From: Sedimentisphaerales bacterium
GTDB lineage: Bacteria > Planctomycetota > Phycisphaerae > Sedimentisphaerales > Anaerobacaceae
DNA: 64,000 nt
NCBI GenBank assembly: GCA_963708075.1
Contig: OY970194.1
Span: forward strand, 4,096,001 to 4,160,000
Direction of reading: 5' to 3'
The position numbers and the translations under genes are program-made. Within the stretch, counting starts at the first letter, position 1; each line of letters starts with the position of its first letter. The notes beneath the pieces are model-generated. The model did no database searches, was not told the origin of the DNA, and was given only the letters and a program-made list of their open reading frames with translations. This document shows positions 4,919-31,181 of this stretch, one piece after another.

Positions 4919-4963
4919 GTAGGGTTATACCCCATAGAGAATAATCGGCCCATGGCGCAATAT
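4919..4963 (+). promoter_or_regulatory. Motif site GTAGGGTTATACCCCATAGA with putative -35 TAGAGA / 17 nt / -10 CAATAT
   Basis: Motif 4919-4938, -10 at 4958-4963. Confidence 0.75.
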
Positions 4964-5302
4964 GTCACGCTGGTCCGGTGGGCCCCAAGACACAATAAGG
5001 ACAACAAGGAAGGCTGGAGAACCAGATGACCATAAAGGAAACCGTGGGCAAGGAGGCTCACTGATCGCTGCCGGCTGGTGCATGGAGGCACCAGTCGGCG
5101 GTGCGTGGCCCTTGCCCGGGTGTCTTTGCAGTGCTGCCTGATATCGCCGCGACAAGCCGGGCAGTTCACTCTCGGCAAAGCACCCCGAGTTTACACGCAG
5201 CCGCTCGGCCAGCATCCGTTGTTGTCACGCCACCAGGGATGCTCGACCCTTTGTTAGCGAGCCACGAATCCACTGTCATCGTCCGACGGTCGTGTCCATC
5301 TG

Positions 5303-5322
5303 TCTATGGGGTAAAACCCCAC
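5303..5322 (-). promoter_or_regulatory. Motif site GTGGGGTTTTACCCCATAGA, facing the cheBR-kinase-regulator operon
   Basis: Reverse-strand copy followed by TAGACA-17 nt-GACGAT; the paralogous promoter near 4694-4722 (TAGACA-17-GATAAT) has a degenerate site. Confidence 0.7.
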
Positions 5323-5500
5323 CTGCTCATTTGTTCCATGTGGCCATGTGGATGAGGGGTCGCCCAATTCGTTGAGACCTCCAGACCAAGTACCACAAAG
5401 GTCTGGCTCAGCGTCCTTCGGGGATCGCCCGACCTGTCCGGCCTGTCGAGCTCTCCTGGCGGCCGGGTCCCCTTCCGGGGAGCGAGGCCAACAATCCCAG

Positions 5501-5546
5501 GTAGGGTTACACCCCATAGATCAAGGACTGACTCACGACGTAGTAT
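5501..5546 (+). promoter_or_regulatory. Motif site GTAGGGTTACACCCCATAGA with -10 TAGTAT
   Basis: Motif 5501-5520, TAGTAT 5541-5546; upstream of lmo0937/DUF3185 genes. Confidence 0.8.
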
Positions 5547-5720
5547 CTCTGAAATGACAGGCCGAAGAACGCGGCAACAGAAAGAAGCAAGTGTGACAAG
5601 TGTGAAGGACTGAATGGCCATGCAGGGGGGCAAGAGCAAGGAGGCTCGTCGATCACTTCCGGCTGGCGCACGGATGCGCCAACCGGCAGTGAAACCACAG
5701 CCAATGGAAAGGAGAATCTT

Positions 5721-5924
5721 ATGTTGTGGATGATTGCCGCCCTACTGGTATACCTGTGGCTGCTGGGGCTGGTGAGTAGTTACTTGATCGGAGGGTTCAT
5801 TCACCTCCTGGTGACGCTTGCCGTTGTCATCGTGCTGGTCAAAATCATTCAGGGACGACGACTAGTGTGGTGTAAGAAGCCGTTAGTCTGTCGTATTGAG
5901 GCAAGGAAGCTGGAGGTTCCATGA
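5721..5924 (+). CDS. lmo0937-family (DUF5670) small membrane protein, C-terminally extended copy
   Basis: MLWMIAALLVYLWLLGLVSSYLIGGFIHLL; RBS AAGGAG; paralog at 10781. Confidence 0.85.
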   Translation: MLWMIAALLVYLWLLGLVSSYLIGGFIHLLVTLAVVIVLVKIIQGRRLVWCKKPLVCRIEARKLEVP

Positions 5925-6136
5925 GATCCAAAACCATCATTGCCGGCATACTGATTGTTGTCGGCATCGTGGTGCTTGCTTACTCGGGCATCACTTACAA
6001 GACCAGAGGAAAGCCCGTCGATATCGGCCCACTGCACGTAGAGACCACAAAGAGCCACTTCATTCCCCCGGTCGTCGGAGCGGTCGCGCTGGTCGGCGGC
6101 ATCATGTTGCTCGTCCTGGACGCCAGGAAGGCATGA
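5921..6136 (+). CDS. DUF3185-like small membrane protein
   Basis: Two TM segments around GITYKTRGKPVDIGPLHV; RBS GGAGG; near-identical paralog at 10976. Confidence 0.8.
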   Translation: MRSKTIIAGILIVVGIVVLAYSGITYKTRGKPVDIGPLHVETTKSHFIPPVVGAVALVGGIMLLVLDARKA

Positions 6137-6203
6137 TGGGAGAGACCACAGAACTCTCGGAAATTCCTGAACAATATCATCTTTTTTACGGAAGGAAAAG
6201 AAA

Positions 6204-6611
6204 ATGAAGACTGCAATTACGATCATGATGACATTAGCTTTGGCCGCCATCTCCGGCTGCCAATCGAGCAGCCCCCGAGGCGGCGGCATGACCAAAGACG
6301 TAGGATTCAAGATCGCTGTTCCGACCTTGGGCACGGACGTCAAACAGGGCGAAGTCCGTGCCGTTACCGTCTCCCTGCAAAGGGGCGAGTCTTTCAAGCA
6401 AGACGTGAAGCTGCAAATCCAAGCGTCCAAGGGCATCAGCGTCGAACCGACCGACGTTCTGGTCAAAGCGAGCGAAAGTCCTGATGTACAAGTCCGGCTT
6501 GCAGCGACCAAGGACACTGCCCTCGGTGCATATATTGTCTCTGTGAAGGGGACGCCGAAAACCGGCGAGCCGACCTCGACGGCATTCACGGTGAAGGTTG
6601 TCGCTCCCTAG
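6204..6611 (+). CDS. Hypothetical lipoprotein (beta-rich)
   Basis: Signal peptide with lipobox ISGC; RBS AAGGA. Confidence 0.75.
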   Translation: MKTAITIMMTLALAAISGCQSSSPRGGGMTKDVGFKIAVPTLGTDVKQGEVRAVTVSLQRGESFKQDVKLQIQASKGISVEPTDVLVKASESPDVQVRLAATKDTALGAYIVSVKGTPKTGEPTSTAFTVKVVAP

Positions 6612-6716
6612 TCTCCGGGCCTTCCGTGAAAGCATATCTGAACCAACACAATTTCGTGATCCCCTGCTGACGATGGGTATTGGCAACTGAAGAACAGTTG
6701 CTGGTTGTTTGACGGC

Positions 6717-6752
6717 GGGTTCTTAGGTGGGCCCTTGCCCACCTAGGAACCC
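6717..6752. other. 16-bp inverted repeat (hairpin)
   Basis: gggttcttaggtgggc-cctt-gcccacctaggaaccc, one G-U pair; intergenic; no U-tract. Confidence 0.6.
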
Positions 6753-6925
6753 AAATACTCGCGGCAGCATTGATGAACCGAGTGATGGTGATGCACTCCC
6801 TCAGCACGGGTGCGAGCCGGGGGTATAAGACTCACCCAGTTCTCATAATTCTCCGATGACCGCTGCACCATGCGTCTATGGGCGGCTGGCAGTACACATA
6901 GAGTTCTTTTTGAAAGGACGGGAAG

Positions 6926-8857
6926 ATGAATCTGCGAAGCGTGGCAATCAATGTATCGGTGCTGCTCCTGATGTCATGGAGCACGGCGGGCGCCGCCAAT
7001 GTCTCATGGATATCCGGCAGTACTGCCCCGAAAGAATGGGTCATTGGTCCTGCCAATCCCACCCCGTTGGACGTCATCCGGTTCTCCGGGCCGACGCTGG
7101 TCTACTCCAATTCGTGCATGGGAGAGAAGGCCTTGAACGGCACGCCTGAGCTTTTGGTCGACCCGAAGGCCAAGGTGATCACGCTGTGGTTCAAGGGTCC
7201 GGCCCCGCAGTCCTGCTCCATGATCTTCAGCCCGGTGGCGGGCCTGGAGGGCGAGTTTGGCCCATTGCCGGCTGGGGACTGGATGTTCACGTGCCTTTCC
7301 AGGGATGCCGGTTTTGAGATTCCTTTCACCATCAGGGACAAGCTCGCGTATCACGTGGATGCTGACGTCCGTGGTTCGGTCCACAACGGCAGGACTTGGG
7401 AGACAGCCATGCTCACCCTTCAGGATGCCTTGGCGGTGGCCGGCAGCGGCGATGAGATTCTCGTTGCGGCCGGTGTGTACAGGCCGGACCAGGGCGGACG
7501 CGTGTCACGCGGCGACCGCACGGCCTCCTTCGACCTGTTCGAGGGCGTGGCATTGAAGGGTGGGTACGCCGGGGACGGGGCCATCAATCCGGATATGCGT
7601 GACCCCAACCAATATCCGACCATCCTCAGTGGCGACCTGCTGGGCGACGACCTGCGGGGGACGCTGAATCGGGACGACAACAGCTACCATGTGGTCACGG
7701 CCCAAGGTCTGCTCTCATCCCCACGTCTGGATGGCTTTACGATCCAGTCCGGCCAGGCGGATGGGGCCGATCCGAACCAGTTTGGCGGCGGCCTGTATGT
7801 CACGGCCGGCTCGCCCGAGGTGCTCAACTGCACGTTCAAGTCCAATGCCGCGGTGTTCGGCGGAGCGATCGCCACCGTCCAGGCCGCACCGGTTCTGGCC
7901 AACTGCAAGCTGACCGGCAACGAGGCGCTGCTGTTCGGTGGGGCCTTGTACAACGAGGATGGCGCCGTGGTCCTGACCAACGTTCTGATCGCGGGCAACT
8001 CGGCGGGCCTGGCGACGGCCTTGGGGAGTTCCGCCCTCTACAACATGGGAGGGAGCATCACCCTCAACGACTGTACGGTGGCTGATAACGTGGCCCCCAA
8101 AGGCATGGCCATTACCAGTCTGGTCTGGGGCTCACCGGCCATGGGGCAGATCATGGTCACTAACAGCATCCTGTACAACGGCGGAGATGAGATCTTCAGT
8201 ACCGATCCTTGCGCCGTCGTGGTCGCATACAGTGATGTCCAAGGCGGCTGGTCCGGGATTGGCAACCTCAACACAGACCCGCATTTCATCAACCCGGGCC
8301 GGTGGAGCATTGGGGGCGACTGGATCGACGGAGACTATCGCCTGATGTCTGATTCAGCGTGCATCGACAAGGGCGACAAGACCCGTCTTCCGGCGGATAC
8401 CCTGGACCTGGACGGCGACGGCACCACCAGTGAGGCCCTGCCGGTCGACCTGAACGGAAACCCTCGCGTCCTGGGTTTGCAGGTAGATATGGGAGCCTGT
8501 GAGCAGCTCGGTTCAGGTCCTGGGCCTGGACCCGGTTGGGTGATGCTGGTGACCGAGGATCTGACCTATGATGTCTCGGCCAATCCGCCTACTTTCCCCA
8601 TCAATGTCTCGGCTTCCAGTCAGAACACAGTCCAACTCAACTTCAAGGCCGAACTGAGGATCGATGTCACGGCGGCATCGCTCGCTGGGGGTGTCTGGAC
8701 GGCCTCGTTCGACCCGGACCCCAACCCCGTGGGACCTGGGACTGTCACCTTCGCCTACAGCATCCACGGTGTCGGCCTGGAGGTCTGGAAGCTCCCGGCC
8801 AACACCCCGGAGGTCAAGGTCGCGACCCTGACCATCTCGGTCCGGCCGGCACCCTAA
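6926..8857 (+). CDS. Secreted right-handed parallel beta-helix / choice-of-anchor Q-like protein
   Basis: Signal peptide; GRTWETAM..LQDAL, GVYRPD, ILSGDL, GGALYN repeats, DYRL..DS.CIDKG, VDMGA.E. Confidence 0.85.
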   Translation: MNLRSVAINVSVLLLMSWSTAGAANVSWISGSTAPKEWVIGPANPTPLDVIRFSGPTLVYSNSCMGEKALNGTPELLVDPKAKVITLWFKGPAPQSCSMIFSPVAGLEGEFGPLPAGDWMFTCLSRDAGFEIPFTIRDKLAYHVDADVRGSVHNGRTWETAMLTLQDALAVAGSGDEILVAAGVYRPDQGGRVSRGDRTASFDLFEGVALKGGYAGDGAINPDMRDPNQYPTILSGDLLGDDLRGTLNRDDNSYHVVTAQGLLSSPRLDGFTIQSGQADGADPNQFGGGLYVTAGSPEVLNCTFKSNAAVFGGAIATVQAAPVLANCKLTGNEALLFGGALYNEDGAVVLTNVLIAGNSAGLATALGSSALYNMGGSITLNDCTVADNVAPKGMAITSLVWGSPAMGQIMVTNSILYNGGDEIFSTDPCAVVVAYSDVQGGWSGIGNLNTDPHFINPGRWSIGGDWIDGDYRLMSDSACIDKGDKTRLPADTLDLDGDGTTSEALPVDLNGNPRVLGLQVDMGACEQLGSGPGPGPGWVMLVTEDLTYDVSANPPTFPINVSASSQNTVQLNFKAELRIDVTAASLAGGVWTASFDPDPNPVGPGTVTFAYSIHGVGLEVWKLPANTPEVKVATLTISVRPAP

Positions 8858-8957
8858 TCGACCTGGGCAACACGGTGGTATATCGAGAAATCTGCAGGGG
8901 GCACCCATTGGGGGGTGCTCCCTACCTCAAGTGATCCTGTCTGTGCCCCATACAAGG

Positions 8958-9002
8958 GTAGGGTTACACCCCATAGATAAGGACCGGCACATGGTGTAGG
9001 AA
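8958..9002 (+). promoter_or_regulatory. Motif site GTAGGGTTACACCCCATAGA
   Basis: Motif 8958-8977, TAGATA-17 nt-TAGGAA; weaker sites upstream (~8908-8926, ~8937-8953). Confidence 0.7.
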
Positions 9003-9113
9003 TCGCAGACAAGAAAATACAACAACAATCGAAAGAAGAAAGTGCGACGCGTGCGAAGAACAGGAGCGTCAACAAGGGAATGATTCCATTGTTGCAGTAG
9101 AGGTAGCAGCGAG

Positions 9114-9446
9114 GTGGGCGTGGCAAGGAAAGAGTTGGTCGGCGTCGATCTGATACTTCCGACGGCCGGAGCGGCAGGTCTTGCCGTGGAACCTGTCCGG
9201 AAGAAAGGATCTATCGGGGCAACGGCGAAAGAGGCAATCCCCGTTGTGAATTATGTAATGGCTTCGTCGAGGGTGTTTCTGATGGGCGCGCCAATCGAAG
9301 GCACTGACGAACTGGCCACGGTCGGGGCGCAGAGAACTTCCCATGTGCCGATGGGATTCGAGATATCCCCATGGGCACCCGCGCGATCGTCTTTGTGGCC
9401 ACAGCGCGAGCCCCGCCCTGACGGTCATCGAGAGGAGTGTGTTTGA
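9114..9446 (+). CDS. Hypothetical protein (doubtful)
   Basis: 110-aa ORF downstream of a motif promoter; no recognisable domain. Confidence 0.3.
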   Translation: MGVARKELVGVDLILPTAGAAGLAVEPVRKKGSIGATAKEAIPVVNYVMASSRVFLMGAPIEGTDELATVGAQRTSHVPMGFEISPWAPARSSLWPQREPRPDGHREECV

Positions 9447-9600
9447 AGCATTGGAGGCGGAAAGGTCATTCCGGCCGTTGTGCCGGAGAAAAGATATGAT
9501 TGGAGATTAGGATATGAAACGGATTTCACTAGCCATGTTCCACAACTCACGTGGTCACCCGTGCTCATTGAACATAGGGTACTCTAAACGGGGAAGATTG

Positions 9601-10311
9601 ATGAAGACGCTGGTATTAACACTCATGATTGCTGCGTTGGCACTGGTCACCAACACTGCAACGGCAAGTTGGACGATGACCAGCGACGTCGGGACTTGGA
9701 CCGGGACCAACGGTGGTACGAACGTACAAAATCAGACAGTGACCGTTGCCTACGGCAACACGGCGCAAAACCAGGTCCGCTGGGGTGTGCCTTATCCTGG
9801 TTCCGTACCGAATGTCATTGACAACCAGAGTGGGCTCGGTTTCACCGGCAAAGCAGCGCCGGCCCTGACCTTTGAGCTTGGCGATCCCTTCGAAATCGGC
9901 CAGCTCGTACACTTCAACCACGAGATCGGCAACGATGGTTCGCCCACGGAGGCTTATCTGCAGCTCGTGATGAACTTCACCACCCCGGATGCTGTCCTGG
10001 GGACATTCAACTTCACATTTGCGGTCAACGAGACACCAGGACTGGGCGTGGATGACATTATCACCTTTCCCATCTCCACCCCACACGAGTCCGCGGATGT
10101 CGGAGGCACACTGTATACGCTGGAGTTGTTAGGGTTCGGAGACAGCCCCAATGCGCTGGTTAAGGAGTTCGTGTCGGTTGAGAATGGTTTGCCGAACACT
10201 ACTCTGCTTTGGGGAAGAGTCACGCCGACGGTTCCCGCCCCTGGCGCTGTTCTGCTCGGCGGGATAGGTACGGCTCTCGTAGGTTGGCTCAGGCGAAGGC
10301 GGATTGTATAG
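9601..10311 (+). CDS. PEP-CTERM-like sorted surface protein (choice-of-anchor K / THxN-like)
   Basis: Signal peptide MKTLVLTLMIAAL; VRWG, QSGLGF, LVHFNHEI; C-terminal VPAPGAVLLGGIGTALVGWLRRRR. Confidence 0.85.
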   Translation: MKTLVLTLMIAALALVTNTATASWTMTSDVGTWTGTNGGTNVQNQTVTVAYGNTAQNQVRWGVPYPGSVPNVIDNQSGLGFTGKAAPALTFELGDPFEIGQLVHFNHEIGNDGSPTEAYLQLVMNFTTPDAVLGTFNFTFAVNETPGLGVDDIITFPISTPHESADVGGTLYTLELLGFGDSPNALVKEFVSVENGLPNTTLLWGRVTPTVPAPGAVLLGGIGTALVGWLRRRRIV

Positions 10312-10567
10312 GTAGGTGGGAGTTTGCCTTGAATTCGGCGCAAGCATCTGGATGGTCATGGTGGTCAACCTGATGCAAGGCAGGAGGGGGGAGTCACAAG
10401 GATGTGACGCCTCCACAAGGATGTGACCTCCTCCTGTCGCACCGAGGGACTGAATCGGAATACGGTTGCGATTCTCCCCCATATATGCCAGAGGTTAATC
10501 CAGATCCCATCTGACAACTGCCATCATCTGCCCATTGGGTAAGGCCCGACCCACCCGGTAATCCGAA

Positions 10568-10612
10568 GTAGGGTTACACCCCACAGACAAGGAACTACCC
10601 ACGACGTAGTAT
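10568..10612 (+). promoter_or_regulatory. Motif site GTAGGGTTACACCCCACAGA with CAGACA-17 nt-TAGTAT
   Basis: Motif 10568-10587, -10 at 10607-10612. Confidence 0.8.
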
Positions 10613-10780
10613 CTCTGATAAGGACAGGCCGAAGAACGCGGCAAAAGAAGAATGTGAAGAGCGTGACGAAACAAATGACTATGGAGGTGGGCAAGAGCAG
10701 GGACGCTCGCCGATCGCTGCCGCCTGGTGACGGAGGTACCAGCCGGCAGTGAAACCATGGCCAACCGAAAGGAGAATCTT

Positions 10781-10930
10781 ATGTTGTGGACGATTGCTGT
10801 CATACTGATAGTTCTGTGGCTGCTGGGGCTGGTGAGCAGTTACACGATGGGAGGATTCATTCACCTCCTGCTGGTGCTTGCCGTTGTCATGGTGCTGGTC
10901 AGGATCATTCAGGGACGACGACTGGTGTAA
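10781..10930 (+). CDS. lmo0937-family (DUF5670) small membrane protein
   Basis: MLWTIAVILIVLWLLGLVSSYTMGGFIHLLLVLAVVMVLVRIIQGRRLV; RBS AAGGAG. Confidence 0.9.
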   Translation: MLWTIAVILIVLWLLGLVSSYTMGGFIHLLLVLAVVMVLVRIIQGRRLV

Positions 10931-10975
10931 GAAGCCGTTAGTCTGTCGTAGTGAGGCAAGGAAGCTGGAGGTTCC

Positions 10976-11191
10976 ATGAGACCTAAAACCATCATTGCCG
11001 GCATACTGATCGTTGTCGGCATCGTGGTGCTCGCTTACTCGGGCATCACTTACAAGACCAGAGGAAAGCCCGTCGATATCGGTCCGCTGCACGTAGAGAC
11101 CACAAAGAGCCACTTCATTCCCCCGGTCGTCGGAGCGGTCGCGCTGGTCGGCGGCATCATGCTGCTTGTCCTGGACACCAGGAGGGCATGA
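10976..11191 (+). CDS. DUF3185-like small membrane protein (copy 2)
   Basis: Near-identical to 5921-6136. Confidence 0.8.
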   Translation: MRPKTIIAGILIVVGIVVLAYSGITYKTRGKPVDIGPLHVETTKSHFIPPVVGAVALVGGIMLLVLDTRRA

Positions 11192-11321
11192 TGAGAGAGA
11201 CCATAAAGGAGACGAGCCATGAGTTGGCACTAAGTCAAAGGACATGTGCCGCTAACCTGTCAAGTATCGGCATTGAACCACAACCAACCCACAATCATCA
11301 AGATTCAGATGGAGATGTAAC

Positions 11322-11420
11322 ATGAAATCACAACGGATTTGCAACTGTGTCTTAGTAGCTGTGGCCGCCCTTTTGGCACTTGCGGTTTTTGTCGGCGGCT
11401 GCCATGGCGTTACCTGGTAG
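11322..11420 (+). CDS. 32-aa putative lipoprotein/lipopeptide precursor
   Basis: MKSQRICNCVLVAVAALLALAVFVGGCHGVTW; RBS GGAG at 11311; too short for the ORF track. Confidence 0.55.
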   Translation: MKSQRICNCVLVAVAALLALAVFVGGCHGVTW

Positions 11421-11462
11421 AGTGTTTTCCGTCGTTCTTGAGAACATCGAAAGGAGTCTATT

Positions 11463-11627
11463 ATGGGATTCATACTACTACTTGTGCTGATCCTGCTTCT
11501 CGTGGGCGGCCTGCCCAGGTGGGGCTACAGCCGTAATTGGGGCTACACCCCCAGCGGCGTCTTGGGGCTGCTACTGATGGTCGTGCTGGTGCTCCTGCTC
11601 GCGGGGTATATCCCCCGCGGCTTCTGA
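11463..11627 (+). CDS. DUF3309-family small membrane protein
   Basis: MGFILLLVLILLLVGGLPRWGYSRNWGYTPSGVLGLLL...; RBS AAGGAG. Confidence 0.9.
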   Translation: MGFILLLVLILLLVGGLPRWGYSRNWGYTPSGVLGLLLMVVLVLLLAGYIPRGF

Positions 11628-11809
11628 GCCGCCGATCACCGGCACGCCGGCCAATTTGGGGTAAGCGGGAGGTCGGCCCCCCGCCCAAGCCGGCCGAGGA
11701 GCGTCAGAGGACGCGCGAAAGCAAGAACCAGGGTGGATACAAGAATAAAGAGAAGGATAAGAACAGATGAGCCGACTTCGCAAGGCTCTGACTCGTAAAG
11801 GAAGATTCC

Positions 11810-12049
11810 ATGAGTAAGTACACAACTCAGTCGAAAACGACGCAGATGTCCGCAATGCAACAGGGGCAAAGGGCCTCGCATCCCGGGCCGGCTGCTGCCG
11901 CCATGCCTACGCACAAAGACATTGCCAAGCGGGCGTATGAGATTTACGTCGAGAAGGCTTGCCGACAGGGCCAGAGTGAACAGGACTGGCTGCAAGCCGA
12001 ACAGGAGTTGAAGAACCAAGAGAACTGGCTGCACGCTGAACAGAAATGA
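11810..12049 (+). CDS. DUF2934-domain protein
   Basis: IAKRAYEIYVEK..RQGQSEQDWLQAEQEL. Confidence 0.85.
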   Translation: MSKYTTQSKTTQMSAMQQGQRASHPGPAAAAMPTHKDIAKRAYEIYVEKACRQGQSEQDWLQAEQELKNQENWLHAEQK

Positions 12050-12214
12050 AAGTAGGACACAACGCAACCTCAGCCCTTGGGCATCTTGGATTCACACGCT
12101 CTGCGCAAAGCGGCAGTCCACGAACCACGGCGTAGCAGCTTCGACATGAAGAAATGATTGATCATCGGCATACGAAGACAAGGCTGTTTGCGTTGAACAC
12201 TGAAGGAGAACTGT

Positions 12215-12334
12215 ATGGAGATGGTTCTATTGACTGTAGTGTATGTGCTTTCTTTGTTCCTTAGCGAAGAGCATGGGCGGCTGGGGGAGCGACGGGATCA
12301 GGACATGGACAGGAACTCGCAGTCCCGGGAGTAA
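12215..12334 (+). CDS. 39-aa hypothetical small protein
   Basis: MEMVLLTVVYVLSLFLSEEHGRLG...; RBS AAGGAG; hydrophobic N-terminus. Confidence 0.45.
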   Translation: MEMVLLTVVYVLSLFLSEEHGRLGERRDQDMDRNSQSRE

Positions 12335-12493
12335 CAGCACGACGGCGGCGGTGATAGTGGGTGTGCCGCCGGGGTCAACAACATGACCATCGAGGAGACC
12401 AGGTCGAAGAACAACTATACATTAACAACGACCACCGTACGCCACCGGCTTTGCCACTTGCGTGCGTTGTTTGCAGGAAAAGGAGTCGGCATC

Positions 12494-12721
12494 ATGAAGG
12501 GCTCAACAGAGGTAGTGAAGGGTCGCATCGAGGAAGCAGCGGGCGTGCTGACCGGCGACGAGAGACTGCGCGCCAAGGGCCAGACGCATCAGGCCGAAGG
12601 GCATGTCAAGCAAGCCGCCGAAAAGGGCGTCCGGCAAGCCAGGGAGTGCGGCCGGAAGATCGTGGACAATGCGAGGAATATCGTTCACAAGGCAGTCGAA
12701 AAAGCAAAAAGAAGGTCTTAG
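12494..12721 (+). CDS. CsbD-family general stress protein
   Basis: VKGRIEEAAGVLTGDERLRAKGQTHQAEG; RBS AGGAG. Confidence 0.85.
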   Translation: MKGSTEVVKGRIEEAAGVLTGDERLRAKGQTHQAEGHVKQAAEKGVRQARECGRKIVDNARNIVHKAVEKAKRRS

Positions 12722-12815
12722 CGGATCGTTGCCAGCGGGTACGGAACGTGTCCACTGGCAGCAATTCCAGGCCCATTAACAGGAACATGGTATGCGAAGG
12801 TAGGTGAGGTTCGTC

Positions 12816-13157
12816 ATGGAACGCAAAAGCAGTGAGAACATTGCGGCAGCTTTGAAACTCCTTGAGGAGGCGGCCAAGCAGAAGAAGGACGAGTTGAGGA
12901 CGCTCATGTCTGATAAGTACACAAATCTGCGGAGCCTGATCATGGAGGACGAAGGCAGTCTCATGGAATCGCTGACCACCGCCAAAGACCACGCGGTCGA
13001 GGCGACCACTCATGTCAAGGAGGCCGGCGTCGAGAAGGCCCGTGAAATCGCCCGCGACGTGGACAAGGGCGTGCATCAGAATCCGTGGCCCTACATCGCA
13101 GGATCGGCGGTGGTCGGTGTGCTACTAGGCTACATTCTGGGCGACAGTCGCAAGTAG
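12816..13157 (+). CDS. DUF883 / ElaB-YqjD-family membrane-anchored protein
   Basis: C-terminal VHQNPWPYIAGSAVVGVLLGYILG. Confidence 0.85.
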   Translation: MERKSSENIAAALKLLEEAAKQKKDELRTLMSDKYTNLRSLIMEDEGSLMESLTTAKDHAVEATTHVKEAGVEKAREIARDVDKGVHQNPWPYIAGSAVVGVLLGYILGDSRK

Positions 13158-13178
13158 CATCGTCCGACAGGAGGGCCT

Positions 13179-13598
13179 ATGTTCAAGTACCTGACCAAGG
13201 GGCTTCTGGCCGGAATTGTGATCCACCTGCTGGACAACTGCCGGCATCTGTCGATTCAAGTGCTCAAGATCGAGGCAGCGAAGTGCTACTTGCACGGCGT
13301 ACGGATGGCCAGGTTGTCGGCAATCGGTCTGATGCGGATGGGGCTCGTGATCGGTCTCATCGGCGTTGGTGTGCTGCTATTCCACGCGGGGCTGTTCATC
13401 CTTCTGCCTTGGACCGCGGAAACCAAAGCGATTCTCGGCATGTTCCTGGGTTTGGCCTACGTGGCCATCGGTTGTGTTGCGCTTCATGCGGCCATGGTTG
13501 AGAAGACGTGGATGGAGAAGTCGGGTGTCGCTGAGATGCTGGACGAAGCGATCGGTCAGTCCAACAAGGACTCACCCGACGGCAAAGGTTCTACCTAA
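13179..13598 (+). CDS. YqjE/phage-holin-like two-TM membrane protein
   Basis: Two TM helices; follows DUF883 as in yqjDE; RBS GGAGG. Confidence 0.6.
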   Translation: MFKYLTKGLLAGIVIHLLDNCRHLSIQVLKIEAAKCYLHGVRMARLSAIGLMRMGLVIGLIGVGVLLFHAGLFILLPWTAETKAILGMFLGLAYVAIGCVALHAAMVEKTWMEKSGVAEMLDEAIGQSNKDSPDGKGST

Positions 13599-18696: not shown

Positions 18697-18741
18697 GTAG
18701 GGTTATACCCCATAGAGTAGGGGCGACCCATGGCGTAGCAT
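18697..18741 (+). promoter_or_regulatory. Motif site GTAGGGTTATACCCCATAGA with TAGAGT-17 nt-TAGCAT
   Basis: Motif 18697-18716, ~130 nt upstream of the FAAL-ACP-AOS gene. Confidence 0.8.
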
Positions 18742-18843: not shown

Positions 18844-22195
<3,352 letters not shown>

Positions 22196-22221
22196 CCCGT
22201 GAAACCCATGAAAGATGTCCC

Positions 22222-22788
22222 ATGAAAGAGGCCATGTGGTGGTTCGCTGCTCTCACGTTGCTGGCCGCGGCAGGCTGTGCCCGAGACCAAACTCGGCTGC
22301 CGTTGACCATCGAGCAAAGCAAGGCCGCGCCGGACGGTGCCCTGGCAGAAACTCGTCCGCTGTTCATCATCGAGCGGAGCAAGAACGCCAACGTCGTGCA
22401 TTACGACGCCCAGCTTACCGCCGACGGCAATCTGGATCCCGAGGAACCGGTGATCGCCTACTATGTCATGCTAGCCGAGGACGGCCGCCGGAAGGAACTC
22501 AATTGGATCGAGAAGAAAATGGCCTACGGCTTCGACATTAGACCGGACCCGTCGGTAGGCGGGTACAAAATGATCATCGTGGCTGCCCCCCAGGGGCCAA
22601 TCACCGTGAAGAAGGAGGGGAACGCCGTCCGTGCCGAGCTGGTCATCGACAGCCACCCGGCTGTTGTCGAGAAGATGTACATCAATGCCTCCGACGGGCT
22701 GCCCTGGCCCAAAGTCCACTATATCGAGCTCTACGGAGTAGATCTGCAAACGGGAGAGAAGCGATTTGAAAAGATCATACCGAAGTAG
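22222..22788 (+). CDS. DUF4833-domain lipoprotein
   Basis: Lipobox AAGC; LFIIERSKNANVVHYD, ELNWIEKKMAYG, YIELYGVD. Confidence 0.8.
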   Translation: MKEAMWWFAALTLLAAAGCARDQTRLPLTIEQSKAAPDGALAETRPLFIIERSKNANVVHYDAQLTADGNLDPEEPVIAYYVMLAEDGRRKELNWIEKKMAYGFDIRPDPSVGGYKMIIVAAPQGPITVKKEGNAVRAELVIDSHPAVVEKMYINASDGLPWPKVHYIELYGVDLQTGEKRFEKIIPK

Positions 22789-22830: not shown

Positions 22831-23022
22831 ATGATTGCGACTTGCGATGTCTTGGTCACTCGTTCTTCATCGACTGCCTTCGTCGGTCTGGCGCTCGGCA
22901 AGGGAACTCACTCCGACTTCGACATGGACGAAATGCGTCGGCTGATGCCGGTTCAGAATGGCTCGGGGGCTTCCAACATCGCGGATATTTGCCGCGGCTT
23001 GATCGAGGAGCGACGGCAATGA
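22831..23022 (+). pseudogene. Orphan C-terminal fragment paralogous to the 17311-18270 protein
   Basis: MIATCDVLVTRSSSTAFVGLALGKGTHSDFDMDE vs MIANCDVLITRFSSTAFVGIALGKETHSDFDMDE. Confidence 0.85.
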
Positions 23023-24146
23023 GCGACCATGTTGTGGTCAGACCGGTGGTTTCGTGGCGGGATCGCAGGCGTTTTCAGCGGCTCGCCTGGTCAATTTATG
23101 CCGGCGACCTCAACTGGGTGCCGCCGATTCTCGCCCAAGAGCGCCAACTCCTGGGCTGGGGACAACATCCCTTCTTTGACAATGCGGAGATCGTAACGCT
23201 GTTGGCGGAGCGAGGTGGCCGGGTGGTGGGTCGGCTGGCGGCGATCGTCAACCACATACATAATAGCAAATACAACGAACGTCGTGGGTTCTTCGGGTTC
23301 TTCGAGTGCGTGAACGATGCAATGGTCGCTCGCTCGTTGTTCGAGGCCGCCCATGCGTGGTTGCGGCAGCGCGGGATGACGGCGGTGCGCGGGCCAGTGA
23401 ATCCGTCGCTCAATTACACCTGTGGATTGCTCGTCGATGGCTTCGATCGGCCCCCTTGCTTCCTGATGACCTACAACCCACCTTACTATGCGGCCCTGGT
23501 GGAATCCTGCGGGTTCGCCAAGTCGCAGGACATGTATGCCTATGAAATGGACATGGGCCGGTTGGCGGCATTGACGGCGCGATACAAGCCCGCGGTGCTG
23601 GCGGCGCTTGAATCGTCCAAACTGGTGTTCCGGCCGTTCGACCCGGGGAAGTATCAGCAGCAGACCGAGACGTACCTCGATATCTACAACCGTTCGCTGG
23701 AAGGCACCTGGGGCTTCACGCCTCTACAGCCGCACGAAGCACGGCACATCGCCGGCGAGCTTCGACAGGTCATCGTACCGGAGTTGGCCGTGTTTGCCGA
23801 GATTGGCGGCCAGCCGATCGGGGCGGTGCTCGCCCTCCTCGACTATAACCAGATCCTCCGCAAGCTCAATGGCCGATTGTTCCCGTTCGGCTTCGTACGC
23901 CTCTTGACCGAACGACGGCACATCACGGCGGCTCGCGTCATGGCAATCAACATGGTGCCCGGCTACCAGAGCGCGGGGCTCGGCATTGTGTTGCTGGACA
24001 ACCTGGTGGGGGCGGTGGCAAAATGGGGCATCGAGCGCTACGAGTTCTCGTGGGTTCTGGAGAGCAATGTCCGTTCCCGCGGCACCCTCGAGCGCGCCGA
24101 GACGAAGATTACCAGCACTTACCGCCTCTATGACAAAGCCTTGTGA
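23019..24146 (+). CDS. GNAT-family N-acyltransferase, bacterial ceramide synthase (bCerS)-like
   Basis: IYAGDLNWVPP, HPFF, VGRLAA, GFFGFFEC, RGPVNPS, GLLVDGF, MTYNPPYY, WGFTP, SWVLESN, YRLY. Confidence 0.75.
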   Translation: MSDHVVVRPVVSWRDRRRFQRLAWSIYAGDLNWVPPILAQERQLLGWGQHPFFDNAEIVTLLAERGGRVVGRLAAIVNHIHNSKYNERRGFFGFFECVNDAMVARSLFEAAHAWLRQRGMTAVRGPVNPSLNYTCGLLVDGFDRPPCFLMTYNPPYYAALVESCGFAKSQDMYAYEMDMGRLAALTARYKPAVLAALESSKLVFRPFDPGKYQQQTETYLDIYNRSLEGTWGFTPLQPHEARHIAGELRQVIVPELAVFAEIGGQPIGAVLALLDYNQILRKLNGRLFPFGFVRLLTERRHITAARVMAINMVPGYQSAGLGIVLLDNLVGAVAKWGIERYEFSWVLESNVRSRGTLERAETKITSTYRLYDKAL

Positions 24147-25517: not shown

Positions 25518-26070
25518 AGTCGTATAAGACACCTTTCAAAGGGCGTCAAGTGCTTGGTGTTGCGAGCTTAGTCTGATACCATATCGTCTTGCTGACCACG
25601 AGGCACGGGCCGCGAGGGACCATGAACGTACACCCTCGGGCTCTGGGACAGTCGCACCGGGGTTTAGAGAGAGGCAAAGATGTTGAAGTCTGCTCATGCG
25701 AAGCACTTTAGCCACACTCGTCCATGGGCTTCGGTTCCCCCGACCCCTCGCTCGTCCAGTGCGGCTATGACTCCAATGCATTTGCAGAGCCCGCCCGAAC
25801 CCGCGGGCTTTGTGAAAGCCTCTCCGCCCCATTCCTTGTAAAAAGGTAGCTCGTCGAGAACGGCCGTCATACAACCGGAAAACCACGGACAGATTGATTG
25901 CTGTGGCACTCATCTCCATTCCCGTACTTCGAGGTTTGCATTACAGGTATGTCCGCATAGCCGCATAGACTGTCGAACAGATGTTTACTCTCGTCTCGAC
26001 ACTCCCCCCGATTCCTCGACGTGTTGTGCGAAAAGCGCCCTGTTGGCTCATTAGGCGCCATTCGAATGGG

Positions 26071-26430
26071 TCAACGCGCTGCCAACTTCGCCGGTCCTGA
26101 TCTCACATCGCCGTCAAGACAGGGTTTTTTGGAGGGACATGTGATCGCTTCCAGCGCCCCATCTATCGCTCCGTCCAACCGATCTGCGATCTCGTAGGTG
26201 CCCTCGGTAATCTGACGACGGATGCTCAGCACTTTGCCTCGCCGGATGTGGGGCGAGCATGCGATCCTCTTCAACACCCCCTCCCAAGGCGTGCTACTCA
26301 TATTCTCAAGGATCTGCTCCATCAATCCATCGTCGTTTGGCGAAGCATCACGCCCTTGGTTGTTTCCTGCGTCCTGCGATTTACGGCGACCTGTGGATTG
26401 CAGCCTCGGCATCTCGAATAGTGTTGCCAT
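26071..26430 (-). CDS. FlgM-like (anti-sigma-28 C-terminal domain) protein
   Basis: PHIRRGKVLSIRRQITEGTYEIADRLD; RBS GAGG; no flagellar genes nearby. Confidence 0.6.
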   Translation of the reverse strand: MATLFEMPRLQSTGRRKSQDAGNNQGRDASPNDDGLMEQILENMSSTPWEGVLKRIACSPHIRRGKVLSIRRQITEGTYEIADRLDGAIDGALEAITCPSKKPCLDGDVRSGPAKLAAR

Positions 26431-26589
26431 AATTGCCTCTTAGCTTATCATCCAAATGTGTGGTTCGCGGCCTGATCCCACAATACCTTGTAGCCCATCC
26501 AAATCCGCCCCCTGGGCCCAAAATCAACTCAGCAGCGAGAGTGCAAAGCATAGAACACAGCCATTCTCTATCCTTTTCTCTTTTGGCTT

Positions 26590-26609
26590 TCTATGGGGTA
26601 TAACCCTAC
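26590..26609 (-). promoter_or_regulatory. Motif site GTAGGGTTATACCCCATAGA upstream of the FlgM-like gene
   Basis: Exact reverse-strand copy; weaker site at ~26622-26640. Confidence 0.75.
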
Positions 26610-27027: not shown

Positions 27028-27072
27028 GTAGGGTTACACCCCACAGACGGGAAACGACCCACGACGTAGTAT
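27028..27072 (+). promoter_or_regulatory. Motif site GTAGGGTTACACCCCACAGA with CAGACG-17 nt-TAGTAT
   Basis: Motif 27028-27047; leader homologous to those after 5501 and 10568. Confidence 0.8.
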
Positions 27073-27148
27073 ATCTGAAAGGATAGGGCGAAGAACGCAG
27101 CAAAGGAACAAAGTGTGAAGCGTGTTATGATTCTTGAAGGAAGATTCC

Positions 27149-27427
27149 ATGAGTAAGTACATGACTCAGTCGAAAACGACGCAGATGTCCGCAATGCAAC
27201 AGGGGCACAAAGCCTCGCATCCCGGGCCGGCTGCTGCTGCCATGCCTACGCACAAAGAAATTGCCAAGCGGGCATATGAGATTTACGTCGAGAGGGATTG
27301 CCGGCAGGGCCAAAGTGAACTGAACTGGCTGCAAGCCGAACAGGAGTTGAAGAACCAAGAGAACTGGCTGCAATCCGGACCAGATATGGAAAACCAAGAC
27401 CAGGTTGGGGACCCTGCGGCCTATTGA
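27149..27427 (+). CDS. DUF2934-domain protein (copy 2)
   Basis: Near-identical to 11810-12049 with a different C-terminus. Confidence 0.85.
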   Translation: MSKYMTQSKTTQMSAMQQGHKASHPGPAAAAMPTHKEIAKRAYEIYVERDCRQGQSELNWLQAEQELKNQENWLQSGPDMENQDQVGDPAAY

Positions 27428-27504: not shown

Positions 27505-27669
27505 ATGGGATTTATACTATTACTTGTGTTGATCGTGCTGCTCTTGGGTGGCCTGCCCAGGTGGGGCTACAGCCGCAATTGGGGTTATGCCCCCAGCAGC
27601 GTCTTGGGGCTGCTATTGGCGGTCGTGCTGTTGCTCCTACTTATGGGGTACATCCCCCGCAGCTTCTGA
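27505..27669 (+). CDS. DUF3309-family small membrane protein (copy 2)
   Basis: MGFILLLVLIVLLLGGLPRWGYSRNWGYAPSS...; RBS AAGGAG. Confidence 0.88.
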   Translation: MGFILLLVLIVLLLGGLPRWGYSRNWGYAPSSVLGLLLAVVLLLLLMGYIPRSF

Positions 27670-27724
27670 GCCGCTGGTCCCTGACTCGGCTAAAACTCTA
27701 TCCAGACTCATTGGTGGTATATTT

Positions 27725-28187: not shown

Positions 28188-28230
28188 CCACCAAAAGCGA
28201 CCGTTTACCCGGGCTCAGTTTCGGCACTTC

Positions 28231-28524
28231 ATGTTCGCGCAATCGAAACCTTACCCCGAGATGATCGCGCTGGTCGCTCAGCTCAAGGCCCGGCACGGGC
28301 TGAAGGTCGCCGTGGTCAGCAACGAAGGGCGCGAACTGAATGCGTATCGGATTCGCAAGTTCAAACTGAACGGGTTTGTGGATTCCTTTATTTCCTCCTG
28401 CTTCGTCCAAGTCGCGGAAGGTCTGGGGATTCGAAGCATTCTTCACACGGATTACAGGTCCACGTGCGCCAAACTGGCTTCGTTCGGACTACAGAATGAC
28501 GAAGGAGTCAGCCATGCCCGTTGA
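28231..28524 (+). pseudogene. HAD-family phosphatase remnant
   Basis: LKVAVVSNEGRELN...FISSCFV joined straight to [13 protein letters not shown]; DxxG N-terminus and KP motif absent. Confidence 0.65.
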
Positions 28525-29485
28525 ATTCAAGGACTACTACGACGTCCTCGGTGTGGCTCGAGACGCGAGCGGCGAGGAAATCAAGAAGGCATTCCGAAAG
28601 CTCGCCCACAAGTATCACCCTGACGTTGCCAAAGATAAGATCACGGGCGAGGCAAAGTTCAAGGAAATCAACGAGGCCAACGAAGTCCTCAGCGACCCGG
28701 AGAAACGGCGAAAGTATGATCAGTTGGGAGCAAACTGGAACCATCCGGAACGGCAGCCGCCGCCACCGCGGGGGGGATTCGGTGGAGGTTACGAAGAGGC
28801 TTCGGAAGTCCATTTCGATGGCACGGGCTTCAGCGATTTCTTCGAGCAGTTCTTCGGCAGTCGCGGTCGTCCATCCGGTGGTTTCGGCCAAACACGGGGG
28901 GATGTCACGGGAGGAGGGACCGTCGCCCAGCGCGGCCAGGATATTGAGGCCGACATCCTGGTGACGCTGGACGAGATCCTGCATGGTTCGACGCGCACGA
29001 TCCAACTGCAGCGTGCCGATCCACGCACCGGGCAATCGGTCAAGCAGACTCTGCGGGTGAAAATCCCACCCGGCGTTCGGGAAACGCAGCTCATCCGTCT
29101 CGCGGGCAAAGGCCAGGAAGGCATTGGCGGAGGCGACTCGGGAAACCTGTATTTGAGGGTGAAATTCGCCCAGCACCCCGATTTCCGTGTGCGCGGCGCC
29201 GACCTGTATTACGATTTGGATCTGGCCCCGTGGGAAGCGGTGCTGGGTACTACCGTCCACATCCCCACTGTGGATGGAACGGTGTCCTTGAAAATCCCGG
29301 CGGGCACCATGGCTGAACGGCAATTACGTTTACGCGGGAAAGGTTTGCCCACGAGCAACGGAGCACGGGGCGATCTGTATGCCGTCGTGTCCATCCAGGT
29401 CCCGGTGCATCTGACGCCGGAACAAAAAGTCCTCTGGGAACAGTTGGCCACAAGATCGACCTTCAACCCGAGGCAACTCTCATGA
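28514..29485 (+). CDS. cbpA: DnaJ-class chaperone, CbpA-like
   Basis: [22 protein letters not shown], DnaJ_C domain, no zinc finger. Confidence 0.88.
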
Positions 29486-29524
29486 GCAAGCGATTTGTTC
29501 CGGACAGCCCCCCCACCCCTGGCG

Positions 29525-29935
29525 ATGGAGTTGTTTCAGCCGCAGCCAAACGTTTTGTACAACCTCGATGCGACTGCACATCTCGCGGGTGTCCCACGCC
29601 GTTCCATTCTGATCTATTGTCGCGCCGGCCTTGTACGACCTGTCGTTCAACCGCCGTATGGGGTGATGGGATTCACGGAAGAGGCGATTTATACCATGCG
29701 GCGAATCGAGGGCTTGCGAACCGTTTACGGCCTCGATTTAGCCTGGATCAAAACCATGTTCGATCTGCTCGACGAGGTGGAGCGCCTGCGCCGAGTTGCG
29801 CTTTTTGCGCAGCCATTGACAAGGCGAACATACACGAGGCTTATACTCTATGGCGACGAAACTCGACCAAACCTGTGTCTTGGCGATCAACGGCGGCTCG
29901 TCGAGCATCAGGTTCGCTCTGTACGAGGTGGGTGA
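29525..29935 (+). CDS. CbpM / MerR-like chaperone modulator
   Basis: Follows cbpA; AHLAGV...YCRAGLVRP...RRIEGLR...LLDEVERLR; 3' end reads into ackA. Confidence 0.7.
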   Translation: MELFQPQPNVLYNLDATAHLAGVPRRSILIYCRAGLVRPVVQPPYGVMGFTEEAIYTMRRIEGLRTVYGLDLAWIKTMFDLLDEVERLRRVALFAQPLTRRTYTRLILYGDETRPNLCLGDQRRLVEHQVRSVRGG

Positions 29936-31130
29936 GGCGCTGGAGCAAAGGCTTCATGGGAAGGTTGACCGCATCGGCCTGAGCGGGACGAATCTAACGT
30001 TTCATGACCCGGATGGCAAGCCGCAGGCCAGTTGCAGCCTCGCCGCCGCCGATCACAAATCGGCCGCGAGTTTCCTGATTGATTGGTTTGAAGGGCAGAA
30101 GGCCTTCGCTTCGGTCAAGGCTGTGGGACACCGAGTGGTGCATGGCATGACGCATTCCGAGCCGGAACGGGTCACGCCGGGGTTGATTGATGAATTGCAT
30201 CGTATCACGCCGTATGACCCGGATCATTTGCCCCGCGAGATTGAACTGATTGAGGCGTTCCGCCAGCGTCATCCGAAACTGCCCCAGGTGGCCTGTTTTG
30301 ACACGGCGTTTCATCACACCATGCCGCGTGTCGCCAAGTTGCTGCCGATTCCGCGACGCTTCGACACAAAAGGAGTCAAGCGCTACGGTTTTCACGGTTT
30401 GTCCTATGCCTATCTGATGGAAGAACTCGCGCGCCTCGGCGACCCGGCGGCAACGACTGGCCGTGTGATCCTCGCGCATCTCGGCAATGGCGCCAGCCTG
30501 GCTGCCGTGCGTGACGGCAAAAGCATCGATACCAGCATGGGCTTCACGCCCACGGCAGGATTGGTGATGAGCACCCGCTCCGGCGATTTGGATCCTGGCC
30601 TGGCGCCGTATCTGGCGCGAACTGAGCAGATGACCACAGAACAGTTTTACGAAATGGTGAACCACGAGTCCGGGCTGCTCGGCGTTTCGGAGACCAGTTC
30701 CGACATGCGGGACCTGCTCGCGCGGGAAGCCGATGACGTGCGTGCGGCGGAAGCCGTGGCGATGTTCTGCTACCAGGCGAAGAAATGGATCGGCTCCTTC
30801 GCCGCCGCGCTCGGTGGATTGGACACGCTCGTCTTCGCGGGAGGTATCGGCGAAAATGCGCCACTCGTCCGCGCTCGCATTTGTGAAGGGTTGAGCTTCC
30901 TCGGCATTGAACTGAATGAGTCGCGCAACGCGGAAACTGCGGGGGTGATTTCCACGGACGCCAGCCGGGTTGCGGTCCGCGTCATTCGCACGGACGAAGA
31001 ACTGATGATCGCCCGCTCGGCGTGCCGTGTATTCCGACTTGGCATGGCCAGTGAAAGAGGGAATTCCGACCATGCAACGAAATACATCTGTCGGCTGGAT
31101 CCGTTGTCAGAGGGCGGTGTGCCCCCATAA
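29850..31130 (+). CDS. ackA: Acetate/propionate kinase
   Basis: INGGSSS, GHRVVHG, FDTAFH, RYGFHG, HLGNGAS, TSMGFTP, FAGGIGEN, TDEE. Confidence 0.95.
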   Translation: MATKLDQTCVLAINGGSSSIRFALYEVGEALEQRLHGKVDRIGLSGTNLTFHDPDGKPQASCSLAAADHKSAASFLIDWFEGQKAFASVKAVGHRVVHGMTHSEPERVTPGLIDELHRITPYDPDHLPREIELIEAFRQRHPKLPQVACFDTAFHHTMPRVAKLLPIPRRFDTKGVKRYGFHGLSYAYLMEELARLGDPAATTGRVILAHLGNGASLAAVRDGKSIDTSMGFTPTAGLVMSTRSGDLDPGLAPYLARTEQMTTEQFYEMVNHESGLLGVSETSSDMRDLLAREADDVRAAEAVAMFCYQAKKWIGSFAAALGGLDTLVFAGGIGENAPLVRARICEGLSFLGIELNESRNAETAGVISTDASRVAVRVIRTDEELMIARSACRVFRLGMASERGNSDHATKYICRLDPLSEGGVPP

Positions 31131-31136
31131 TCCACG

Positions 31137-31181
31137 GTAGGTGTATACCCCATAACGAAGCCGCCCCGGCCGGCGCAATAT
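31137..31181 (+). promoter_or_regulatory. Variant motif site GTAGGTGTATACCCCATAAC with -10 CAATAT
   Basis: Motif 31137-31156; second partial site ~25 nt upstream (ggtgtgcccccataa); upstream of the copper module. Confidence 0.6.

Follow-up and report, generated by a model that had tools for sequence, protein, structure and literature searches.

Recurrent 20-bp boxes at fixed promoter spacing: a candidate stress regulon in a Sedimentisphaerales bacterium and beyond

The DNA considered here is a 64,000-nucleotide stretch ("the window") of a Sedimentisphaerales bacterium (Planctomycetota), positions 4,096,001 to 4,160,000 of contig OY970194.1, and the subject is a short box that recurs in its left half. 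The window belongs to a single 7.5-Mb contig with 60% G+C. Genomes are referred to by numbers beginning with G, this one being G000, and separate loci by numbers beginning with L. The box, GTAGGGTTAYACCCCAYAGA, is a dyad with the core GGGT-N3-ACCC and the extended form GTnGGGT-N3-ACCCnAY, and it is found together with an operon encoding a NarL/LuxR-type response regulator at the left edge of the window, the candidate reader of the box.

At up to three mismatches, the 20-mer has eight matches in the window, at 4919+, 5303- (2 mismatches), 5501+, 8958+, 10568+, 18697+, 26590- and 27028+, against 0.00 expected from 100 shuffles. The copy at 31137+ is a variant, GTAGGTGTATACCCCATAAC, with four mismatches. 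These are the nine positions given in a preliminary description of the window, which also placed no copy after 31.2 kb; a scan at up to four mismatches likewise found none there. A tenth copy at 4719-4738(-), absent from that list, has kept its -35 and -10 but lost both dyad cores. The bare core GGGT-N3-ACCC matches once more, at 44356, inside a long open reading frame (ORF) and without the flanks; with 0.95 expected, this is at chance level. In all copies, the last four bases of the box are the start of a -35-like hexamer (TAGAGA, TAGACA, TAGATC, TAGATA, CAGACA, TAGAGT, TAGAAA or CAGACG in the window). The -10 hexamers (CAATAT, GACGAT, TAGTAT, TAGGAA, TAGTAT, TAGCAT, TAGAGA, TAGTAT and CAATAT) follow after a spacer of 17 nt, or 18 nt at 5501, just as had been described.

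The promoter at 5501-5546(+), with -10 TAGTAT and the 18-nt spacer, is followed by a leader of ~175 nt and an operon at 5721-6611 for an lmo0937/DUF5670 protein, a 71-aa membrane protein and a lipoprotein. That at 10568-10612(+), also with -10 TAGTAT, precedes genes for an lmo0937 protein (10781-10930), a 71-aa membrane protein, a DUF3309 protein (11463-11627) and a DUF2934 protein (11810-12049), with a CsbD-like gene (12383-12721) after them. The two operons (5.5-6.8 kb and 10.6-11.9 kb) are paralogous duplicates, and the earlier view that four of the box copies arose by duplication is confirmed by their common upstream and leader sequence. The remaining copies had been said to head unrelated genes, and the downstream gene families agree with this. 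The box at 18697-18741(+), with -10 TAGCAT, heads a gene at 18844-21984 whose 1046-aa product combines a fatty-acyl-AMP ligase, a carrier and an aminotransferase, followed by genes for a DUF4833 protein (22192-22788) and a GNAT-like protein (22842-24146). On the opposite strand, the promoter at 26565-26609(-), with -10 TAGAGA, precedes a FlgM-like protein (26071-26430) and an ORF at 25536-25919. The promoter at 27028-27072(+), with -10 TAGTAT, leads into DUF2934 (27134-27427) and DUF3309 (27505-27669) genes, and the variant at 31137-31181(+), with -10 CAATAT, into a gene for a Met-rich secreted protein (31254-31715), with a DUF302 gene (32022-32414) after it. The target of the box at 8958-9002(+), which has a weak -10 (TAGGAA), is uncertain: downstream are an ORF without a family and then a gene for a PEP-CTERM THxN protein (9514-10311).

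Family scans place many of these products among small stress proteins. Two of the lmo0937/DUF5670 membrane proteins were scanned and are above the cut-offs (lmo0937 family NF033488, 68 and 39.4 bits vs a cut-off of 30; Pfam DUF5670, 39.3 vs 23.5), and three more are assigned by likeness. DUF3309, DUF2934 and CsbD-like proteins are also found behind boxes, CsbD scoring 39.5 bits against a cut-off of 40. Other genes associated with the box encode a YflT-like protein, bacterioferritin, Band_7, a B12-radical-SAM protein and MlaE. The small stress proteins, the lipid module and the anti-sigma-like (FlgM-like) protein of the previously proposed target list were thus recovered by these scans. The "copper module" in that list was not: only the Met-rich secreted protein and DUF302 are present there, with no family match to support the name.

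The operon at the left end of the window is on the minus strand. The 5' part of the regulator gene, RR-B, is at 1-170(-), the gene continuing outside the window to G000:4095496. Domain scans bear out the earlier view of it as a NarL-type regulator of a CheBR-kinase-regulator operon, and they place it behind HisKA_3 kinases and a CheB/CheR-PAS protein: RR-B has a receiver (REC) domain and a GerE/LuxR helix-turn-helix (Pfam Response_reg and GerE, E 7e-20), the architecture of the NarL/FixJ (LuxR-type) family. With it are a PAS-HisKA_3-HATPase histidine kinase at 203-1591(-) and a CheB methylesterase/CheR methyltransferase/PAS_10 protein at 1603-4348(-). A paralog, RR-A (225 aa, G000:66643-67317), is 92% identical to RR-B. 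The phospho-acceptor residues of the receiver are present (D10, D11, D56, S84 and K106 in sequence P0002). The best PDB matches of the regulator are NarL, VraR, DevR and DesR (VraR 5hev, E 7.5e-42; NarL 1a04, E 1e-31; DevR 3c3w, E 7e-29), and no NCBIfam equivalog reached its cut-off, the best being MctR with 208 bits vs 300. Kinases with HisKA_3 and HATPase_c domains are directly upstream of the regulator at both loci of G000, in G007 and G012, and at loci in other phyla. RR-A is preceded by a 379-aa HisKA_3 kinase (66-68 kb) with an RsbU_N-like head. The RsbU_N score is 24.4 bits in G000 and 23.2 in G007, below the cut-off of 25.5, and 27.2-28.1 in L098, L092 and L103. This kinase gene is headed by a box at 68616-, which forms a divergent pair with the promoter of MlaE, the two dyads being 17 nt apart.

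Such an arrangement recurs in the genus. A kinase-type variant of the box, GTCGGGTTTTACCCYATAGA followed by GATAAT, is found before a kinase-regulator or CheBR-kinase-regulator operon in G000, G007, G009, G012, G013 (a copy with 5 mismatches), G015 and G016. In most cases, it is paired with the dyad of an oppositely directed MlaE promoter at a distance of 17 nt. Altogether, the operon of the regulator carries the box in at least eight genomes of the genus. The preliminary description had put the regulator's own operon under the box. This holds for the conserved placement in the relatives of the genus, but not for the window itself, where the proximal promoter copy at 4694-4738(-) has kept its -35 (TAGACA) and -10 (GATAAT) and lost the dyad (GGG to TGA and CCC to ATC at 4719-4738). 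The intact copy, the kinase-type box GTGGGGTTTTACCCCATAGA at 5303-5322 with -10 GACGAT (promoter 5278-5322(-)), is separated from the operon by an inserted convergent module and heads only a truncated N-terminus of an RsbU_N-type kinase. The inserted module is the box at 4919-4938 with its -10 CAATAT at 4958-4963 (promoter 4919-4963(+)), an lmo0937-type promoter. Since only a truncated lmo0937-type leader follows it and it converges on the 5303 promoter, it is a remnant of a rearrangement, as is 5303- itself. Altogether, three promoter modules (4719-4738-, 4919+ and 5303-) are crowded into 640 bp at 4690-5325. With the proximal dyad destroyed and the intact copy cut off, the window operon may have escaped autoregulation, or the assembly may be wrong at 4690-5325. 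Nearby, the CheB/CheR-PAS_10 gene is split within the CheR domain and reads as two frames that overlap (2858-4348 and 1603-3249); in relatives (L066, L088 and L090) it is a single ORF of 899-956 aa. The split is either a frameshift or a sequencing error, and both it and the rearrangement at 4.7-5.3 kb may be errors of assembly.

Across the whole genome, 24 places match the 20-mer at up to four mismatches. Seventeen were kept as real; the seven that were dropped all have four mismatches and lack both an intact core and a -10. The 17 sites are clustered at 68-81 kb (5), at 2.06 Mb (2), in the window (9) and at 5.13 Mb (1). Twelve of them head a recognizable co-oriented gene 50-260 nt downstream, namely five of lmo0937 type and those for the kinase, MlaE, YflT, the acyl-AMP ligase, the FlgM-like protein, DUF2934 and the Met-rich protein. 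Three others head only small or unassigned ORFs, and two are the remnants at 4919+ and 5303-. A motif search over the relatives found the same box, at up to two mismatches, in 11 of the 24 genomes of the GTDB genus, whereas the reversed pattern was found in none. Orthologs of the regulator (82-92% identity) are present in G000 (two copies), G007, G009, G013 and G015, and thus in five of the 11 box-bearing genomes, and in none of the 13 box-less ones; other matches to the regulator in the genus are paralogs with no more than 50% identity. The YflT-like target gene follows a similar pattern: a search for orthologs in box-less genomes showed it to be present only in box-bearing ones (G005, G008 and G016), bar one weak partial match in G033.

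The anatomy of the promoter was derived from 67 unique sites in 10 genomes of the genus, 15 from this genome and 52 from relatives, aligned on the box. Outside the box, strong information is found only at offsets 39-40 (T-A) and 43-44 (A-T), and the flanks are otherwise almost without conservation. In 50 of the 67 sites, the pattern TAnnnT is at offset 39 (38 sites) or 40 (12 sites), and no other flanking offset reaches 8, which puts the -10 at a fixed 19-20 nt after the box. Because this offset is fixed and the start of transcription is predicted 7 nt after the -10, the centre of the dyad is expected at about -43, overlapping a poor -35. On average, the -35 matches TTGACA at 3.5 of 6 positions in the genus and at 2.75 in the cross-phylum sites. 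Position 2 is almost never T; across phyla, ~90% of sites have A or G there, and most have C at position 4. The class II geometry proposed earlier, with the dyad set over a weak -35 and held at one distance from a sigma-70-like -10, agrees with these data, and activation of the promoters is predicted. A ccca..gcg block before the -10, which had been reported as frequent, is indeed common but not universal, being missing from a second class of promoters (e.g., 26590- and 5129400-). Weaker helper sites 20-30 nt upstream had also been proposed. A weight-matrix scan of the 67 sites recovered no tandem sites of this kind. Where promoters diverge in pairs, the dyad of the partner (offsets -34/-37) is the only secondary site, and five of the 67 sites have a CCCTAC half-site at -30.

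The box is not confined to the genus. RR-A protein alone was searched against one genome per species (185,579 species), which gave 584 relatives. The best 80 of these 584 loci, with 62-83% identity and 1.04 Mb in all, were analyzed. By their deposited labels, 66 are from Verrucomicrobiota, two each from Planctomycetota, Kiritimatiellota, Acidobacteriota and Omnitrophota, and six have other labels or none. Three labels (Bifidobacteriaceae twice and Anaerolineaceae once) are probably wrong because their regulators nest in Verrucomicrobiota and Planctomycetota clades. The loci were chosen by the protein alone, and the 17-mer GTAGGGTWWYACCCCAT occurs in 51 of the 80, with 63, 91 and 118 copies at 0, 1 and 2 mismatches, respectively, and 0, 0 and 0 in the reversed sequences. 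The -10 keeps its place: of 116 sites, 68 have TAnnnT at offset 39 (61 sites) or 40 (7 sites), and 6 more have it at offset 38. Box and regulator are thus conserved together under five phylum labels.

Among the first ORFs behind these sites (112 scanned), ~14 encode proteins with three BON domains (OsmY-like) and ~9 encode HisKA_3 kinases, some with RsbU_N-like heads. Others encode DUF5670, DUF3185, DUF3309, CsbD, YflT, OsmC, PRC-barrel, MlaA/MlaE, ice-binding-like, GroEL, KaiC and sigma factor proteins. Metagenome contigs chosen by the box alone, as an exact 19-mer, give a similar picture. There were at least 128 such stretches, and of the 80 unique sites analyzed among the matches listed, 63 have TAnnnT at an offset of 39 (51 sites), 40 (9 sites) or 38 (3 sites). 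Of 74 first ORFs scanned among the matches listed, 36 have a family: ~11 BON, 5 DUF5670, 5 HBM/apolipoprotein-like, 3 CsbD, 3 PRC-barrel, 2 YflT and 2 DUF883, with Hsp20, dodecin and others also present. Judged by these families, the genes behind the box make up a classic general-stress repertoire. Work on Listeria (PMC7690807) describes lmo0937 as sigma-B dependent, with lower levels in sigB mutants.

The input modules beside the regulator differ between groups. The Planctomycetota loci have CheBR-PAS proteins and PAS-kinases, as in the window, and those of Verrucomicrobiota and Kiritimatiellota have kinases headed by RsbU_N. At both Acidobacteriota loci, an operon for KaiC, KaiB, KaiB and a PAS-HisKA_3 kinase adjoins the kinase-regulator pair (L098:8861-12564 and L120:9747-13409). 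In a locus labelled Lacunisphaera, the box heads a KaiC gene (L164:239-586). There are hints here that a KaiBC timer may feed the same regulon.

The pairing of box and regulator can be followed further in the tree of the regulators. In a FastTree phylogeny, the regulator clade is split from the paralogs in this genome by a long, fully supported branch. The placement of the regulator in the tree agrees with a planctomycete origin, and phylum labels cluster within the clade, with 14 changes compared to 23.7 in shuffles. Conservation of the recognition helix, KTVEKHR, is 95% or higher among the 80 regulators. A subclade of seven (L094, L097, L105, L110, L111, L121 and L153) has A-to-P and V-to-F changes before the helix and E-to-D within it, and no box is found in the flanks of these loci; G036 and G040, which belong to this subclade, have no box genome-wide. 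The helix variants probably read a different DNA word. In a sample of 300 genomes drawn evenly from the phylum, with the regulator called at E <= 1e-70, nine have the regulator. Two or more boxes are found in four of these nine, compared with a single genome among the 291 that have no regulator (Fisher p = 2e-6, although kin are not independent). Five of the nine have a box, in each case 0.35-5.3 kb from the regulator gene, and the single matches in 16 of the 291 other genomes are at the level of the reversed control (16 genomes). The autoregulatory placement, the co-occurrence in genus and phylum and the recovery of the box under five phylum labels by the regulator alone all support a tie between the two.

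The best explanation at present is that the dyad is bound by a dimer of the phosphorylated window-edge regulator, most likely as an activator of sigma-70-type promoters that have no usable -35, in a class II-like manner. A dimer of the NarL-type regulator, activated by its kinase, would bind at about -43, replace the missing -35 contact and recruit the housekeeping polymerase, and the regulator would feed back positively on its own operon. Signals would enter through the adjacent HisKA_3 kinases, the input parts varying between an RsbU_N-like head, a CheB/CheR-PAS protein and a neighboring KaiBC. The model supposes that this regulator alone reads the box, that its binding activates and that transcription starts ~7 nt after the -10.

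Several observations do not fit this model well. Six of the 11 box-bearing genomes of the genus, all drafts, show no ortholog of the regulator; in G012 and G016, the operon runs off the end of a contig, and for G004, G005 and G008, there is no explanation beyond draft assembly. In the phylum sample, four of the nine regulator-bearing genomes have no box, and G289 has five boxes without a regulator at E <= 1e-70. Of five regulator-bearing genomes of Verrucomicrobiota type without a box in the flanks, three have none genome-wide. One of these three, G039, has an unchanged helix, and G037 has only one or two boxes. Lastly, the model does not explain the ccca..gcg block, which is conserved in the spacer of many, but not all, of the promoters.

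A rival reading has the same regulator act as a repressor, with an operator over the -35 that blocks RNA polymerase until a signal releases it. NarL-family regulators can repress, the dyad does overlap the -35, and in the genus, the -35 matches TTGACA at four or five of six positions in 34 of the 67 sites. However, the same phase to the -10 is kept at sites in the genus, cross-phylum and metagenome sets, which repressor operators do not need. Moreover, with a -35 as poor as that found across phyla, derepression would still leave a weak core promoter. Repression is therefore considered unlikely.

If the box were read instead by a different transcription factor, or by an alternative sigma factor that uses an extended upstream element, the two-component system would be just another member of the regulon. 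This would account for the box-bearing genomes that show no ortholog of the regulator, and sigma genes are sometimes found behind the box (an ECF (extracytoplasmic function) sigma in G016 and L144 and a sigma-70-type one in L120), while the FlgM-like anti-sigma protein belongs to the regulon. An ECF sigma as the reader was considered and rejected: three G000 homologs of the ECF sigma in G016 are far from any box. The conserved block, 20 bp long and two-fold symmetric, also extends to about -51, farther upstream than any contact of a sigma factor with the -35. The -10 is a sigma-70-like TAnnnT, and no sigma gene is consistently linked. Across phyla, by contrast, the box is accompanied by a single DNA-binding gene, that of the regulator, and changes at its recognition helix accompany loss of the box. 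A different reader thus appears about as improbable as repression. That the box is only the end of a repeated or mobile module spread by duplication can be almost dismissed in spite of the four duplicated window copies, the remnants at 4719-5322 and the recombinase or integrase genes near some islands, since the flanks are almost unconserved in the 67 sites, the genes downstream are unrelated, orientation and spacing to gene starts are kept, and the box persists under five phylum labels amid unrelated flanking DNA; it is a promoter module and not a mobile repeat scattered regardless of gene starts, as the preliminary description had allowed for.

A few local features stand apart from the question of who reads the box. 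The leaders of the lmo0937 type (~170 nt) contain, at 5640-5705 and 10700-10760, a conserved 16-bp hairpin, GCTGCCGGCTGG...CCAGCCGGCAG, ~25 nt before the ribosome site, into which a short ORF of varying length (MTMEG...) runs. The hairpin is also present at L031:10400-10465 and in L033, L077 and L078, with one pair alternating between C-G and U-A, and it may be a leader switch of some kind. An Rfam search found no family at gathering scores in the window, and relaxed thresholds on 4800-12500 gave one chance miRNA match only and no match to the hairpin. An 18-nt box seen in some leaders (11 of the 67 sites) was rejected as a feature of the regulon, as it belongs to one paralogous leader family. 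The lmo0937 copy at 5721-5924 has lost its stop and gained 18 residues (67 aa vs 49 aa at 10781-10930), reading into the start of the next gene. Assembled contigs from RNA libraries (four runs from three studies, searched with 4500-14499) pile up at 5836-6837, 10512-12181 and 12850-13517. The first two pile-ups cover the operons for small proteins headed by the 5501 and 10568 boxes, and the third covers an unassigned stretch (12.85-13.5 kb). Because they are mostly only 90-95% alike, these contigs come from relatives; they give a hint of transcription of these genes by relatives living in sediments and wetlands, contig depth being no measure of expression or of starts.

Genes of a mobile type are also found nearby. 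A DnaB-like helicase, an integrase-core fragment and a 3'-5' exonuclease are encoded just left of the window regulator operon (G000:4091000-4094000; L034:7044-9912), and in G008, a large serine recombinase adjoins the box-headed YflT gene (L072:2738-4504). Together with the patchy spread in the genus (11 of 24 genomes), this suggests a stress island that is able to move.

In kind, such a system is known. DosR/DevR of Mycobacterium tuberculosis is a NarL-family regulator that uses a ~20-bp palindrome with GGG...CCC cores at or near the -35 of stress-survival genes, its own operon included. The present system shares the NarL-type regulator and a GGG...CCC palindrome overlapping the -35, again with the operon of the regulator included, and would function much as the DosR regulon does. 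It does not, however, belong to that regulon, as neither a DosR ortholog nor the DosR box geometry is found: DevR is only a distant match (E 7e-29), and the distance between GGG and CCC is 5 nt here and 8 in the DosR box. The kinases differ as well, with PAS or RsbU_N-like heads instead of the GAF-haem of DosR, as do the targets, which are of OsmY/CsbD type, and the distribution, which covers Verrucomicrobiota, Planctomycetota, Kiritimatiellota, Acidobacteriota and Omnitrophota.

NarL/NarP and VraR/LiaR belong to the same protein family and bind inverted half-sites as dimers; the symmetry of the dyad suggests that the same may hold here. The NarL heptamer is TACYYMT, and NarL and NarP recognize a 7-2-7 arrangement of sites. 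The right half-site of the box, TACCCCA, resembles this heptamer, but in contrast to the 7-2-7 arrangement, the half-sites point outward from the centre and have no spacer.

The targets are those of sigma-B in Bacillus and Listeria, of RpoS and of EcfG/PhyR in Alphaproteobacteria: CsbD, YflT, OsmY/BON, OsmC, PRC-barrel, lmo0937 and Dps/bacterioferritin. Unlike in those systems, the promoters have a sigma-70-like -10 and a 17-20 bp dyad rather than a sigma-specific -35/-10 pair, and the linked regulator is a two-component response regulator, with only sporadic sigma genes behind the box. There may also be a likeness to the outputs of the stressosome (RsbRST), in that the kinase beside the regulator has an RsbU_N-like head, the domain that receives RsbT in Bacillus. 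A further study (PMC9237108) describes RsbU_N domains as markers of likely targets of RsbT. In the annotated flanks of G000 and eight cross-phylum loci, a search for RsbR, RsbS and RsbT found neither STAS nor RsbT-type genes; L149 has one HATPase_c_2 protein behind a box.

No description of the box, of the regulator or of such a stress regulon in these phyla was found in open-access full text, including by motif strings. For a two-component regulon, it is unusual that box and recognition helix alike stay nearly invariant from one phylum label to another. Going by gene content, the system could be the counterpart of sigma-B, RpoS and EcfG in these abundant, little-studied phyla, with a conserved output and swappable inputs (an RsbU_N-headed kinase, a CheB/CheR-PAS methylation module or KaiBC), although this broader view is more tentative than the proposed mode of action. 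Verrucomicrobiota, Planctomycetota and Acidobacteriota dominate soils, peat and sediments, and the control of their protective genes is essentially unknown. The finding supplies an exact DNA word, a candidate regulator that is named together with its kinases, and a predicted list of targets that can be read in any genome or metagenome. The stress states of these bacteria would then be trackable in metatranscriptomes, and the circuit would be testable in any cultured carrier.

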